A DNA stretch of 64,000 nucleotides, taken from the sequence record PP434423.1; one strand, written 5' to 3'. The first letter of the stretch is position 1. Every line of letters begins with the position of its first letter. Positions 176-8,409 of this stretch are shown here, piece by piece. Source of the stretch: Escherichia phage 236Ecol005PP. The translations under genes and the position numbers were made by a program. Below the pieces are notes generated by a model. The model made no database searches. It was not told the DNA's origin and saw nothing but the letters and a program-made list of their open reading frames with translations.

Positions 176-205
176 ATTATATCATATTAATACTTAAGCG
201 TAAAC
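176..205 (-). promoter_or_regulatory. T4-type early promoter (-35 GTTTAC, -10 TATAAT)
   Basis: minus strand GTTTAC-N18-TATAAT just upstream of ip start at 146. Confidence 0.5.
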
Positions 206-468
206 TGTTTAAGCTTTACCGCCAGAAATAATTCCGAAGTTGTTAAAATCATATCCAATATCGTCACATCTACTTTAGGGCTTGCTACAACATAAGCAAT
301 TTCACTACGTTTTGCATAGGTGTTTATTTCTCTACCATCGCCGCCTAGGAAAGAATACCCATTACGTTTTAATGAGCCAAAATCTTCGGCATCACCAACG
401 AAAGCTTTAACTTTAAATTTGGGGCCTTTGGCATCTGCTTCAGCGATAAATTCTTGATACATTTTCAT
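187..468 (-). CDS. internal head protein (ip family), 93 aa
   Basis: ATG start with AAGGA RBS; N-terminus MKMYQEFIAEA = CTS consensus. Confidence 0.7.
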   Translation of the reverse strand: MKMYQEFIAEADAKGPKFKVKAFVGDAEDFGSLKRNGYSFLGGDGREINTYAKRSEIAYVVASPKVDVTILDMILTTSELFLAVKLKQFTLKY

Positions 469-947: not shown

Positions 948-2188
<1,241 letters not shown>

Positions 2189-2192
<4 letters not shown>

Positions 2193-2551
2193 TTTAATTT
2201 CCTGCAATCAATCACAAACTCTTTCATTGATTCATTTTCAATATAAGACATGTAGCTATTATATTCTTTTAATTGTATTTTGTAATCCTTTTTTCTTTGC
2301 CAATTTATTTTAAAATTATCATAATGAAAATATAGAATGATACAAAAGAATGAAAATAATGAAATAATTTTAGTATAGCGAAGTTCACTCCAAACTTCTA
2401 TTATATTTACTGTGCCATCGATGTTTAAAATAAGACAGTCAATTAACAATCCAAAAAGACTACCCGCAAGAGCTGCAGCCAACGCCACAGCAAAAATTAA
2501 AAATGACTCAGGAAGCGAATATTTGACTTTATTTAGTTTTGGCTTTTGCAT
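2189..2551 (-). CDS. hypothetical membrane protein (e.2-like position)
   Basis: ATG start; two hydrophobic segments; positional. Confidence 0.6.
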
Positions 2552-2925: not shown

Positions 2926-3502
2926 ATTCTCTACATTCCTTAACAAATTTTTCTAATAATAAATCGCTTTCAAAATTAGGATTTTCTACGAATTTATCAA
3001 AAAGATCATCAATAATAGTCAAGATATTCTTTTTACTAAGAATACGCTTATTTTCATATTTTGTTTCAGAGTCAACTATAAGAGTAAAGAAATATTTCTT
3101 TCCCTGAAATTTTACTGTAGTATCAATATAAAATAAATTTGACTTTTGTAAATTACGTCTAAACCCCGCGTCACTTAAACTATAAATGCCAAGATAGTCA
3201 TAATCGTCGTTTAAATAGCATACCGTCCATTCAGGGGAAATGAAATCAGTAAATTCAACATCAAAATCACATGTCAATGAATGAATTGATTCAATACTGT
3301 TAATAAGTATTCCAGGACGTATTAAAGACTTTTTACCTCTATAAAATCTTCCAGAAAGACTTTCGTCAGTTTCATATGAAGACCCCCAATAGTAATTACG
3401 TCCTTCTGCCATACGTTTAAGAGCATTTAGTAATTGGTCTGGAACATCAACATGTCTTTGGAACTCTTCAAACATTGAATTGAAATCATTTTGCATTCTC
3501 AT
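2894..3502 (-). CDS. hypothetical protein, 202 aa
   Basis: ATG with GGAG RBS; long ORF in early-gene orientation. Confidence 0.6.
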   Translation of the reverse strand: MRMQNDFNSMFEEFQRHVDVPDQLLNALKRMAEGRNYYWGSSYETDESLSGRFYRGKKSLIRPGILINSIESIHSLTCDFDVEFTDFISPEWTVCYLNDDYDYLGIYSLSDAGFRRNLQKSNLFYIDTTVKFQGKKYFFTLIVDSETKYENKRILSKKNILTIIDDLFDKFVENPNFESDLLLEKFVKECREYVKAITIPSK

Positions 3503-3522
3503 TCCTATTTACTCCAGTAATA

Positions 3523-3536
3523 GGGGCCGAAGCCCC
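3523..3536. terminator. GC hairpin GGGGCCGAAGCCCC (GNRA-like tetraloop) between ORFs
   Basis: perfect 5-bp GC stem with CGAA loop; weak U-tract. Confidence 0.3.
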
Positions 3537-3542
3537 TTATCA

Positions 3543-4136
3543 TTATTTCAGAGAATTAATGTATTCCTGAACATCGGCAGAAGTGGTTTCAACCCCAGAA
3601 ATATTACCGTTAAAGGTTTCAACTCGAGCAAGGGTATCTTCAATATCAACCTTAGTTAGCGCTGCGATTTCAACTACATCATCGGCAGTACTAATTCCAA
3701 GGGCATTTGCCGCTCGAGTTTCACGGATATATTCCAATTTAACTGCAAGTTCTTGGCGAGCATCATCTAACTCAACTACTTTCTTGGCGATTTCAATTCG
3801 CATTTCAGCATAACCATCAGCCTTAGTAGTCAACTGCTCAGCTGTTCGACGATATAATAAACCGAGTTTAGCATGCATTGTTACATCTTGACCTTCGGAA
3901 AGAAGCTTGCGAATTTCACGCTCTTTTGATTCGGCTTGTCGATTCTTTTCGATAACAAGTTCACGAATACGCTTTTCTTCATTAATAGATTTAACAGAAG
4001 CAGTTTTTAGATCTTTAATTTTATCAAGTAGTTTTGCTGCTGCAGCAGTATACTGTTCTTCGACAGATAGATTTTTAGCCATAGCAGAACCAAGTTTAGT
4101 GCGAATAAACTCAACAATTTTCTTCAGTGTGTTCAT
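3543..4136 (-). CDS. coiled-coil protein with PspA/IM30-like character, 197 aa
   Basis: ATG start; long charged heptad-like region; resemblance to PspA judged by eye only. Confidence 0.6.
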
Positions 4137-4894: not shown

Positions 4895-4923
4895 TAAAAA
4901 GCCCCAACCTTTCGGCTGGGGCT
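4895..4923 (-). terminator. rho-independent terminator closing the tRNA/stable-RNA transcription unit
   Basis: minus strand AGCCCCAGCCGAAAGGUUGGGGCU followed by UUUUU. Confidence 0.6.
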
Positions 4924-5210: not shown

Positions 5211-5765
5211 TTACCGGTAGCGACCCGGTTTCTCATTTGGTATTTCAAATTGTGTAGATTTAGTATCTAATTTTTTAACTATGGAACTTATGTCATGAAA
5301 GAAAAACCATTCGCCATTTATATGGTCCTGATTATAAATGCTGTGCATATATTTTTCAAGTTCTACTGCATCCTGGGAATATCTAAATGATACTATTTTA
5401 AAACTTTTAAACGGTGAAAATGTATTTGCTGTTATAACTCTAACATCAGGTTCTATACTTCTTCCTATTTTATAATAATTAGGATTTGTAGTATCTACCA
5501 TTATGTATACGAAAGCCTGTCGATAGCTTTTTTCTATATCAAATTCATCTTTAAATTTCAAAAGATTTAGGGCGGCAGTCCTACAAAATACTTTCCATTT
5601 TGACAAGCGTTTGGCTTCAGTCATAGAAAAGAATTTTTTCTTATCTGTTATTTTAAGAAAAGCAACATTTTCAATTAGTTCTTGTGTTATTTCAAAATTA
5701 CCGCGGTATATTAATCCAGCTTTTATAGCCAAATTAATTTGGTCCCAGTCTACATCACTTCTCAT
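5211..5765 (-). CDS. T5orf172 / GIY-YIG-like domain protein, 184 aa (possible seg-type mobile endonuclease)
   Basis: C-terminal AFVYIMVD...NYYKIGRS...GEWFFF resembles the T5orf172 GIY-YIG-like fold; ATG start. Confidence 0.7.
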   Translation of the reverse strand: MRSDVDWDQINLAIKAGLIYRGNFEITQELIENVAFLKITDKKKFFSMTEAKRLSKWKVFCRTAALNLLKFKDEFDIEKSYRQAFVYIMVDTTNPNYYKIGRSIEPDVRVITANTFSPFKSFKIVSFRYSQDAVELEKYMHSIYNQDHINGEWFFFHDISSIVKKLDTKSTQFEIPNEKPGRYR

Positions 5766-5786: not shown

Positions 5787-5863
5787 TGGCCAGGGTGAAA
5801 GGATTCTAACCTTTAACCTGCGGTTTAGAGGACCGCTACTCTATACAATTGAGTTACACCCCG
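5787..5863 (-). tRNA. tRNA-Arg (anticodon UCU)
   Basis: hand-folded cloverleaf; anticodon loop CCTCTAA; T-loop TTAGAAT; encoded CCA. Confidence 0.55.
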
Positions 5864-5989
5864 TAATTAGTTCACAGCAATACCTACTCCAACAATCAAG
5901 ATGTCTTCACACGAAATTAAGAGAAGAGTGATCAGTTCAACCACTATAATCGCGTCAAGTAGATATTAATGTGACAACTGTCACAAGTT

Positions 5990-6064
5990 TGGCGGACATG
6001 CATGGATTCGAACCATGGACCAATTGATTAACAGTCAACTGCTCTACCACTGAGCTACACATCC
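5990..6064 (-). tRNA. tRNA-Asn (anticodon GUU)
   Basis: hand-folded: GGATGTG acceptor, GCTC/GAGC D-stem, loop CTGTTAA, T-loop TTCGAAT, encoded CCA. Confidence 0.7.
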
Positions 6065-6068
6065 AAAT

Positions 6069-6155
6069 TGGTGGGGAGTGATGGAGTCGAACCACCCGAG
6101 TCGCAATGACAATGGATTTACAGTCCACACCGCTACCTCTACGGGATAACTCCCC
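6069..6155 (-). tRNA. tRNA-Tyr (anticodon GUA), long variable arm
   Basis: anticodon arm GTGGA-CTGTAAA-TCCAT as in bacterial tRNA-Tyr; type II variable arm; encoded CCA. Confidence 0.7.
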
Positions 6156-6168
6156 TAATTCGTAATTT

Positions 6169-6243
6169 GGTGGCCCTGGGTGGAATTGAACCACCATCTG
6201 GCGATTATGAGTCGCTTGCTTGAACCTTCCAGCTACAGGGCCT
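6169..6243 (-). tRNA. tRNA with CAU anticodon (Ile-lysidine type as in T4, or Met)
   Basis: anticodon loop CTCATAA; T-arm GGTGG-TTCAATT-CCACC; encoded CCA. Confidence 0.7.
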
Positions 6244-6244
6244 T

Positions 6245-6319
6245 GGTGCTGATTGACGGAATCGAACCGCCGACCTTCTCATTACAAGTGAGTTGCTCTA
6301 CCTACTGAGCTAAATCAGC
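6245..6319 (-). tRNA. tRNA-Thr (anticodon UGU)
   Basis: GCTGATT acceptor, loop CTTGTAA, T-loop TTCGATT, encoded CCA. Confidence 0.8.
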
Positions 6320-6325
6320 AAAAAC

Positions 6326-6415
6326 TGGCGGAGGCGATAGGATTTGAACCTATGAGTCGCCGGAGCGACTGCCGGTTTTCAAGACCGGTGCATTAAACCA
6401 CTCTGCCACGCCTCC
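6326..6415 (-). tRNA. tRNA-Ser (anticodon UGA), long variable arm
   Basis: anticodon arm CCGGT-CTTGAAA-ACCGG; type II variable arm; encoded CCA. Confidence 0.8.
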
Positions 6416-6417
6416 AG

Positions 6418-6491
6418 TCTCCGCGGCAGGATTTGAACCTGCGACATTCTGCTCCCAAAGCAGACGCTCTACCAAACTGAGCTACACGGAG
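6418..6491 (-). tRNA. tRNA-Pro (anticodon UGG), CCA not encoded
   Basis: anticodon loop TTTGGGA; T-arm GCAGG-TTCAAAT-CCTGC; 3-prime end lacks CCA. Confidence 0.75.
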
Positions 6492-6501
6492 TAAATTAAA
6501 T

Positions 6502-6575
<74 letters not shown>

Positions 6576-6581
6576 AAACTT

Positions 6582-6668
6582 TGGTACGAGAAGTGGGACT
6601 CGAACCCACAAGGAAATCATTCCGCAGCATTTTAAGTGCTGTGCCTTTACCAATTTGACCATTCTCGC
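6582..6668 (-). tRNA. tRNA-Leu (anticodon UAA), long variable arm
   Basis: anticodon arm CAGCA-CTTAAAA-TGCTG; T-arm GTGGG-TTCGAGT-CCCAC; encoded CCA. Confidence 0.8.
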
Positions 6669-6669
6669 G

Positions 6670-6742
6670 CTGGGAATAAAGGACTCGAACCTTTGCATCT
6701 AGCAGTCAAAGTGCTATGCCTTATCAACTTGGCTAATTCCCA
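6670..6742 (-). tRNA. tRNA-Gln (anticodon UUG), CCA not encoded
   Basis: anticodon arm TAGCA-CTTTGAC-TGCTA; T-arm AAAGG-TTCGAGT-CCTTT. Confidence 0.75.
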
Positions 6743-7767: not shown

Positions 7768-8076
7768 CTATTTTATTCCGCGTGATGCAATTGTATTCTG
7801 TCGTTTAGCACCAGTTTGTTTAAAGTCATGATTGTCGATTTGATCGGTACGAGCAACTCCGAATGATGATTTAATCTTAGCTTTAGATCCTTTAGTTATA
7901 GAAATAAACATCTCGGAAGCCCCTTTCTTAAAGTCCGAAGCAATTACTTCAACACCGTTCTTAGCAAGTGACTTCAGAATTGCCTCCGCGTATTCATCGT
8001 CAAGACTCGCCTGAGTATTAATAACGAATGTCTTTGGCGCAGCCGCTTCATTGATAAATTCTTTAAATGTTTTCAT
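7768..8076 (-). CDS. internal head protein (ip family), 102 aa
   Basis: N-terminus MKTFKEFINEA = CTS; ATG start. Confidence 0.7.
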   Translation of the reverse strand: MKTFKEFINEAAAPKTFVINTQASLDDEYAEAILKSLAKNGVEVIASDFKKGASEMFISITKGSKAKIKSSFGVARTDQIDNHDFKQTGAKRQNTIASRGIK

Positions 8077-8136: not shown

Positions 8137-8409
8137 TCATTTTAAATAAATTGCGTATTTTTTATAGCCACCAGGCTCGTGTCGAAGACCCCTATCATTA
8201 GCAAAACGCTCAATGTTGTTAATTTGATTCTGGTCAAGTTCAGAGATGTCAAACACGAAATAGTTACGTTTGTTACCAACTGTTACATAGTCAGTTAAAT
8301 CAATACCATATAGGTAATTGATGTCAGCAATCATAGTCTTGACAGCTTTGCTAATTTTTACTTTTTCGTTAAAAGTAGCTTCATTGATAAATTCTTTAAA
8401 TGTTTTCAT
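8137..8409 (-). CDS. internal head protein (ip family), 90 aa
   Basis: N-terminus MKTFKEFINEA = CTS; ATG start. Confidence 0.7.
   Translation of the reverse strand: MKTFKEFINEATFNEKVKISKAVKTMIADINYLYGIDLTDYVTVGNKRNYFVFDISELDQNQINNIERFANDRGLRHEPGGYKKYAIYLK

Follow-up and report, generated by a model that had tools for sequence, protein, structure and literature searches.

Gene e.6 of T4-like phages probably encodes a compact, divergent relative of PspA/IM30

It is very probable that gene e.6 of T4-like phages specifies a homologue of PspA/IM30, a family of the ESCRT-III superfamily. The copy considered here is on the minus strand of a 64,000-nucleotide stretch of DNA from Escherichia phage 236Ecol005PP (PP434423.1), the whole of which is termed the window. 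The explanation that best accounts for the observations overall is that its 197-aa product is a divergent, compact PspA with a membrane-stabilising role, and this is assigned a probability of roughly 0.6. That homology had been reported before, in a single sentence of a genome announcement from 2021 (PMC7862958), and so the finding is correct, not new. The shortened architecture of the protein, its spread through Straboviridae and Ackermannviridae, and its lack of partners were not found in the literature searched, and phage-encoded members of the family are not discussed in two broad surveys of PSP or in a 2025 review of ESCRT-III.

Identity, distribution and expression of the gene

3543..4136, minus strand: gene e.6, candidate 197-aa divergent PspA/IM30 (ESCRT-III superfamily) homologue, from the ORF, the T2 annotation, phrog_1203, PF04012 via the family, hhalign and Foldseek

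The ORF is 594 nts long, with its ATG at 4136 and a TAA at 3543-3545, and an AAGGAAA resembling a Shine Dalgarno sequence is 5 nts upstream of the ATG. D, E, K and R make up 34% of the protein. The initial annotation had described a helical, charged product of 197 aa, which is what is found, and the two peptides that it quoted are residues 53-79 and 111-141 of the product.

The phage T2 record annotates the same ORF as e.6, and many T-even phages of Escherichia, Shigella and Salmonella share 95-97.5% identity with the 1.7-kb segment round it. Judged by these sequences, the window genome is T4-like (Tequatrovirus) and the ORF is gene e.6. The window protein matches phrog_1203 ('unknown function') over its full length (E 1.6e-87), and tblastn gave 1,106 phage records with e.6, all except 8 of them (1,098) covering at least 80% of the query, with identities ranging from 100% down to ~32%. 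In T4 itself, time-resolved omics places e.6 (T4p129, UniProt P39224) among genes with early RNA and middle protein (PMC9697503 supplement). That the ORF is not a chance one follows from the phrog_1203 match, the ~1,100 full-length phage records, the T2 annotation and the T4 expression taken together. Though T4 is the best-studied virulent phage, current functional-genomics tables still carry e.6 as a conserved hypothetical gene of 'unknown function', with its essentiality given as 'UNKNOWN'; its knockdown by dCas13d (CRISPRi-ART) in a laboratory host received the score 'Not Fit', which denotes the absence of an effect on fitness (PMC11879866 supplements).

Evidence for homology to PspA and Vipp1

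The window sequence alone gave no PspA signal in searches of Pfam, NCBIfam and PDB sequences (the last with phmmer), and PF04012 (PspA_IM30) did not match it at E values up to 10. Nor was bacterial PspA reached when 1.8 billion representatives were searched exhaustively with an HMM profile from a narrow, Tequatrovirus alignment of close e.6 homologues (A1); the same search returned only 45 clusters, all of ~200-aa e.6-like proteins. The e.6 family appears from this to be small and far from cellular PspA.

The bridge to PspA is provided by the more distant members of the family. A broader alignment, A2, has 38 sequences with identity down to 18%, and among its members the most frequent Pfam family is PF04012 (5 of the 38, best E 8.9e-10). 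Two of them, P0065 and P0066, score 35.1 and 39.0 bits against PF04012, both above the Pfam gathering score of 33.9, and their residues 6/7-146 align in register to profile positions 2/3-143. Both match the A1 profile over the full length (E 1.4e-21 and 2.9e-20), and a BLASTP alignment of P0066 with the window protein spans 194 residues, with an E of 1.2e-13. Membership of PF04012 is accordingly a property found at the level of the family, through P0065, P0066 and hhalign, while the window sequence by itself falls short of it. Several distant A2 members start with MSIFQRLK, MGILSRIK or MGIKSFF, like the start of PspA. The linker between α0 and α1 is S/T-P-E in many of the distant members, D-P-E in PspA/Vipp1 and S-V-E in the window protein.

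When the A2 profile was compared with PDB sequences, Vipp1 came first (E 1e-4), with 1-146 of the profile aligned to 1-147, and eight of the nine top sequences were Vipp1 or PspA; these matches carried large composition-bias corrections, however, and a prefoldin coiled coil scored nearly as well (E 1e-3). Hhalign of A2 against A4, a PspA plus Vipp1 alignment assembled from two database searches, gave a probability of 95.1%, an E of 3e-8 and a score of 58.2 over 194 columns, running from residue 1 to the C-terminus of both. Reversed alignments and column-shuffled alignments are the valid nulls for this comparison; the former scored 15.8-17.0 and the highest of 30 of the latter was 19.3. Circularly shifted alignments found the true register again, and thus do not constitute a null. 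With removal of the four most PspA-like rows, those that match PF04012 themselves, the probability was still 91.7%.

The hhalign score climbs steadily as the e.6 alignment is diversified, with 10 rows at the start and 38 at the end, just as it should if the homology is remote but genuine. The narrow Tequatrovirus alignment gave a probability of just 10.8% against PspA plus Vipp1, with its 62 aligned N-terminal columns in register, and gave nothing against a narrow enterobacterial PspA alignment. As signals from shallow profiles are weak or absent, diversity is needed on both sides of the comparison. For the T4 e.6 homologue of Klebsiella phage Metamorpho, an HHpred probability of 99.9% to E. 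coli PspA (4WHE_A) has been reported (the 2021 genome announcement, PMC7862958).

On the side of sequence, support for the PspA reading of e.6 comes only from profile methods. The initial annotation had proposed resemblance to the PspA/IM30 and ESCRT-III-like family and had named, as what would count against it, profile searches yielding generic coiled-coil similarity with no PspA-family match. The searches did not come out in that way, and its proposal is upheld by PF04012 via P0065 and P0066, hhalign at 95.1% with its controls, Foldseek matches to Vipp1 (below) and the published HHpred at 99.9%.

Predicted structure and architecture

AlphaFold2 (AF2), supplied with alignment A1, modelled e.6 with a mean pLDDT of 76.9 and helices at residues 3-22, 25-80, 86-145, 166-174 and 186-196. 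Residues 1-20 (α0) and 146-185 are regions of low confidence. The elements distinguished by the model and the alignments are:

4071..4130, minus strand: α0, predicted N-terminal amphipathic helix and putative membrane anchor, residues 3-22 (AF2 pLDDT 50-53; aligns with PspA/Vipp1 1-22)
3702..4064, minus strand: predicted α1 + α2/3 helical hairpin, the ESCRT-III/PspA hallmark, residues 25-145 (AF2 pLDDT mostly 82-96; aligns with Vipp1 1-147)
3609..3641, minus strand: putative shortened α4, residues 166-176 (hhalign to EAMARFESFE of PspA, the FERME motif; short AF2 helix at 166-174, low pLDDT)
3546..3581, minus strand: α5C-like C-terminal helix, residues 186-197 (hhalign to α5C of PspA/Vipp1; AF2 helix at 186-196, pLDDT 79-89)

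The check by structure prediction that the initial annotation had suggested thus came out as α0 plus a long hairpin, with Vipp1 at the head of the structural matches. In a Foldseek search of the PDB, the top 8 matches of the e.6 model were all Vipp1 (best E 5.6e-4, probability 1.00); these were followed by the archaeal ESCRT-III protein CdvB2 and, lower, by PspA (7abk) at a probability of 0.97. Once past the e.6 family, the leading matches in a viral structure library include a protein of Acinetobacter phage ME3 annotated as PspA/IM30 and a Snf7 of Megaviridae.

An α0 and a short linker (AEDPEK in PspA/Vipp1) are seen in e.6 in the AF2 model, at low pLDDT, and in the alignment. The N-terminal segment is amphipathic, as the initial annotation had pointed out. 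For residues 2-19 the hydrophobic moment comes to 0.45, and for those of E. coli PspA to 0.42, but 6.8% of shuffles of the same residues reach 0.45, so that the amphipathicity of α0 is consistent with the proposal and not significant alone.

The long hairpin of α1 and α2/3 that typifies ESCRT-III is present in the e.6 model. Its tip, V85-T98, is conserved, with V85, K90, L91, L94 and R96 invariant in A1, and the hairpin-loop sequence is placed by hhalign opposite LKEREDLARAALIEKQ of PspA/Vipp1. Further on, TLARVETFN of e.6 lies opposite AMARFESFE of PspA, the FERME motif of α4 (hhalign); T174 and F175 are invariant in A1. It is in this region that e.6 is shorter. Hhalign finds 13 PspA residues of α4 (DQMEAEAESHSFG) missing, as are 8 further ones (DDQFAELK) which constitute α5N and include the equivalents of Vipp1 F197 and L200. 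The e.6 C-terminus then falls opposite AISEQLAQLK of PspA, with the C-terminal LK motif included. Conservation in the C-terminal third is, across the whole family, at least as high as in the hairpin: no two positions vary less than G147 and Y192, and L196, like Y192, also ranks near the top.

In this superfamily the defining polymer contact is Interface 1, made via α5C, and deletion of α5 abolishes rings and filaments; α5N makes the inter-rung Interface 3 in Vipp1 (PMC8281802). By alignment and model, e.6 is a compact PspA, which appears to keep α0, the hairpin and the α5C motif and to lack α5N along with part of α4; it has no α6. The missing α5N and part of α4 could alter or abolish assembly of rings or rods by e.6.

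Comparison with known members of the superfamily

E. coli PspA (PF04012, PDB 4WHE) has the same order of elements as e.6, α0, hairpin, α4 and α5C, in 222 rather than 197 aa, with end-to-end alignment by hhalign, and its N-terminal helix is likewise amphipathic with a similar hydrophobic moment. However, its identity to e.6 is ~13%, which is not detectable from a single e.6 sequence, e.6 is without ~13 residues of α4 and the 8 of α5N, and the α0 of e.6 is cationic. The setting also differs, since e.6 is a solitary gene of a lytic phage, without pspBCDE or pspF, and is on the phage early programme instead of being induced under stress by σ54/PspF.

Vipp1 (IM30; Synechocystis sll0617, Nostoc punctiforme; PDB 7O3W, 6ZVR, 8QFV) provides the best profile matches (E 1e-4) and the best Foldseek match (E 5.6e-4). 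Its α5C, the Interface 1 element, is aligned by the C-terminal motif of e.6. In contrast to e.6, it has an α6 extension, is of ~260 aa rather than 197 and functions in a thylakoid context, and its F197 and L200 (α5N, inter-rung Interface 3) have equivalents that are missing in e.6.

Closer at hand are the Ackermannviridae e.6-like proteins (Klebsiella phage May gp064, Taipeivirus; P0065/P0066). They are of ~200 aa, belong to the same family as e.6 (profile E 1e-20 to 1e-21) and, like it, are encoded by solitary genes in early or replication regions. Unlike the window protein, to which their identity is ~22-25%, they are nearer to canonical PspA and pass PF04012 themselves; a further difference is that the Taipeivirus genes are followed by one for a predicted membrane protein of 185 aa.

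The best structural matches outside the family, at a probability of 1.00, are the PspA/IM30 protein of Acinetobacter phage vB_AbaM_ME3 and the Snf7 of Megaviridae. At 229-268 aa they are longer than e.6, they are recognisable by ordinary annotation, and their identity to it in the structural alignment is 16%. Their existence means that viruses do carry members of the ESCRT-III superfamily.

Genomic context and the lysis genes

The genes round e.6 on the same strand are denV, internal-protein-like genes, e, nudE, e.3, e.4, e.5, e.6 itself, e.7, e.8 and a tRNA cluster. The lysozyme gene e (1226-1714) is ~1.8 kb downstream of e.6, with e.5, e.4, e.3 and nudE between, so that the earlier description of e.6 as being next to the lysozyme region is true in a loose sense of strand and neighbourhood and not of adjacency. 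The small membrane proteins also noted at that time are there; e.3 (2189-2551) and e.4 (2533-2946) have predicted transmembrane segments. No match to PspB or PspC, nor any other significant Pfam match, was found for e.3, e.4, e.5, e.7 or e.8. A further element is:

3522..3537, minus strand: GGGGC-UUCG-GCCCC stem-loop immediately past the stop codon of e.6, candidate weak terminator, or hairpin for RNA stability, between e.6 and e.5 (scan and folding)

Its centroid energy is -12.7 kcal/mol, with a z-score of just -1.26 for the 61-nt context. Phage UFV13 has the same hairpin behind its e.6, where it is given as a predicted terminator (PMC5931544).

The surroundings of e.6 differ elsewhere. In RB43 and an Aeromonas Biquartavirus phage it is between nrdD and nrdG, while in Taipeivirus the homologue is among replication genes and precedes the gene for the 185-aa predicted membrane protein; in phage SonariX e.8 alone is shared near e.6. 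No conserved neighbour was found across five diverse loci, and no homologues of e.3, e.4 or e.5 near e.6 in the RB43, Biquartavirus and Taipeivirus loci. A conserved membrane partner of the kind of PspB/PspC or LiaI was sought in the loci compared, with none seen: among the neighbours in RB43, Biquartavirus and SonariX, none has transmembrane segments or resembles e.5, and e.5 and the downstream membrane protein of Taipeivirus proved to be unrelated. Gene e.6 stands alone, in regions that vary.

It had been suggested that e.6 acts with lysozyme and the small membrane proteins on the timing of lysis or the integrity of the envelope. Such a role late in infection, in concert with e, e.3 and e.4, has some appeal in the window, where the four genes are co-oriented within 3 kb and two of the products have predicted transmembrane segments, and preservation of the proton-motive force in the manner of PspA could in principle delay holin triggering. 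But the linkage is lost in RB43 and Biquartavirus, with their nrdD/nrdG location, and among the replication genes of Taipeivirus, and e.3, e.4 and e.5 homologues do not accompany e.6 there. With no conserved neighbour across loci, the link to lysozyme and lysis is unsupported by synteny. Early RNA and middle protein do not fit a late function either; the stem-loop separates e.6 from e.5, the lack of PspB/PspC matches extends to e.3, e.4 and e.5, and the knockdown was without effect on fitness. A place for e.6 in lysis timing is consequently improbable.

The context of a Psp operon, pspB/pspC, PspF and a σ54 promoter, is likewise absent from e.6, a phage early gene. With no Psp partners, no conserved neighbour and early expression, e.6 is best filed under the PspA/IM30 family and not as an orthologue of the PspA of the Psp system.

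Proposed function

Most likely e.6 is supplied by the phage to stabilise the inner membrane and the proton-motive force, as family membership, the elements retained and the timing of expression suggest. PspA reportedly binds membranes and repairs proton leakage, as Kobayashi et al. are said to have found in 2007. Made early to mid infection, e.6 would use α0 and the hairpin to attach to the inner membrane on its cytoplasmic side, and may polymerise by side-by-side packing of hairpins and contact of α5C with the tip of a neighbouring hairpin. The polymer would then limit leakage of protons and keep the membrane energised in the face of phage-caused damage, for which DNA injection, superinfection, holin accumulation and membrane-targeting host defences are candidate sources. 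The Psp response of the host itself is only weakly induced by T4 (PMC12795941). So conceived, e.6 would be an accessory fitness factor whose contribution depends on conditions, outside the lysis machinery. For the specific proposition that e.6 is a membrane-stabilising polymer the odds are put at even or a shade under. Against the overall explanation are the lack of a membrane partner, the lack of a conserved neighbour and the lack of a phenotype on laboratory knockdown.

In a bolder version, T-even and Ackermannviridae phages would deploy a minimal ESCRT-III/PspA polymer of their own early in infection, and e.6 would serve as both a membrane-repair and an anti-defence factor, resealing membrane damaged by the phages themselves, by superinfecting phages or by depolarising abortive-infection effectors; it would also be the smallest natural polymerising PspA, functioning without α5N. 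This composite is tentative and, taken whole, rather doubtful.

E. coli PspA not only acts as an effector but also negatively regulates PspF, and this dual nature invites another explanation, in which e.6 has no effector role at the membrane and its partners are the host's PspF, or PspB/PspC, bound so that the Psp response is held off or redirected. The N-terminal half of PspA is covered by the alignment with e.6. The psp operon of the host is induced weakly on T4 infection in comparison with ΦX174 (PMC12795941), which counts for this reading too. However, e.6 is ~13% identical to E. coli PspA, and the BLASTP matches between them are short and out of register, with E values of at least 0.07, which makes conservation of a PspF-binding surface on e.6 unlikely. 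T4 shuts off host transcription globally, and by this textbook feature a dedicated repressor would be redundant. Members of the family, widely diverged in sequence, also occur in Aeromonas phages and Ackermannviridae, and the full PspA architecture, α0 and α5C included, is kept although a pure binder of PspF would not need it. Mimicry for regulatory ends is thus an outside chance, and the membrane-stabilising compact PspA is the reading retained.

Least credible of all, with very little left in its favour, is that e.6 is a generic coiled coil, an adaptor or scaffold whose likeness to PspA is convergent from hairpin geometry and charged heptads, given an alignment collinear from residue 1 to the C-terminus that takes in α0, linker, hairpin loop, a FERME-like motif and the C-terminal LK motif, the failure of reversed and shuffled controls to reproduce it, the passing of the curated Pfam threshold by P0065 and P0066, an hhalign score that grows with family diversity from 10 to 38 rows, and the published HHpred value of 99.9% (PMC7862958).

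Significance and annotation

Were the function to be confirmed, a shortened, partner-less phage PspA would bring bacteriophages into the ESCRT-III superfamily, and e.6 would be a compact natural variant with which to dissect the helices needed for polymerisation and for membrane protection. It would also open to testing the means by which a lytic phage maintains an energised host membrane up to programmed lysis, or withstands defences aimed at the membrane. A paper linking heat stress and pspA to phage tolerance (PMC12234005) deals with truncation of host pspA affecting the capsule and is irrelevant to e.6.

There is a practical consequence for databases, where relatives of e.6 are otherwise entered as hypothetical. 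Many GenBank records label the e.6-family protein 'host specificity protein' or 'tail completion protein', the latter being the mis-annotation carried by the Ackermannviridae members. The evidence contradicts both labels; sequence, structure, time of expression and genomic context all leave a virion or tail role without support.

Homologues of e.6 and their database names

Many GenBank and UniRef records of e.6 homologues carry the name 'host specificity protein', in Tequatrovirus and its relatives, or 'tail completion protein', in the Klebsiella Taipeivirus phages. Neither name is supported for e.6 by sequence, fold, expression time or context, and both look like propagated annotation errors.

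In RB43 (locus L003, 3001–3447) the gene annotated as e.6 encodes 97 aa only (3154–3447). A tblastn search of RB43 with the 197-aa window protein matched its residues 52–197 at 3001–3441; this may reflect either an N-terminal truncation of the RB43 gene or a misplaced start in its annotation. In Klebsiella phage May, a Taipeivirus, the PspA-like gene is directly followed by one for a 185-aa protein (locus L002, 5651–6208) that has an N-terminal transmembrane segment and is unrelated to e.5. The 185-aa protein may serve the PspA-like one as a lineage-specific membrane partner, much as anchors go with bacterial PspA homologues.

Among the matches to the e.6 model in the viral structure library BFVD are an annotated PspA/IM30 protein of 229 aa from Acinetobacter phage vB_AbaM_ME3 and a Snf7-family protein encoded by a Megaviridae environmental sequence. 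Given these two, viruses may have gained genes of the ESCRT-III superfamily in more than one event.

Neighbouring genes and RNAs

Two neighbouring small membrane-protein genes of the e.6 block have overlapping ends, and neither product has a Pfam family:
2189–2551, minus strand, e.3, 120 aa, one predicted transmembrane segment
2533–2946, minus strand, e.4, 137 aa, two predicted transmembrane segments

The products of e.3 and e.4 may be diverged paralogues: BLASTP finds a weak similarity between the N-terminal regions (E 0.001), and the C-terminal tails of the two are alike in charged character.

The region from e.8 to the tRNA genes holds:
4900–4923, minus strand, strong intrinsic-terminator-like hairpin (10 bp, 7 of them G-C, then TTTTT)
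5211–5765, minus strand, 184-aa ORF with a MUG113/T5orf172 domain (E 2.6e-9)
5787–6742, minus strand, cluster of 10 tRNA genes (Arg-TCT, Asn, Tyr, Met-CAT, Thr, Ser, Pro, Gly, Leu, Gln)

The hairpin sequence is that given as the 'RNA C' terminator of phage UFV13 (PMC5931544), a match that points to a position between e.8 and the T5orf172 gene for the small stable RNA C/D region; no Rfam family matched the hairpin region. The 184-aa ORF adjoins tRNA-Arg, on the e.8 side of it, and because its domain is related to GIY-YIG-type nucleases it is probably a mobile, homing-endonuclease-like gene of the variable tRNA region. The Asn, Tyr and Met tRNA genes are also annotated in the tRNA cluster of the T2 record, whose annotation lists no tRNA-Thr; tRNA-Tyr is barely above the Rfam tRNA threshold (30.2 bits against 29).

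Four small ORFs share an N-terminal motif, MK(M/T)(Y/F)(Q/S/K)EF(I/L)..(A/S):
187–468, minus strand
948–1244, minus strand
7768–8076, minus strand
8137–8409, minus strand

This motif is similar to the capsid-targeting sequence at the N terminus of T-even internal head proteins, and ip genes are annotated in the T2 record at the corresponding places.
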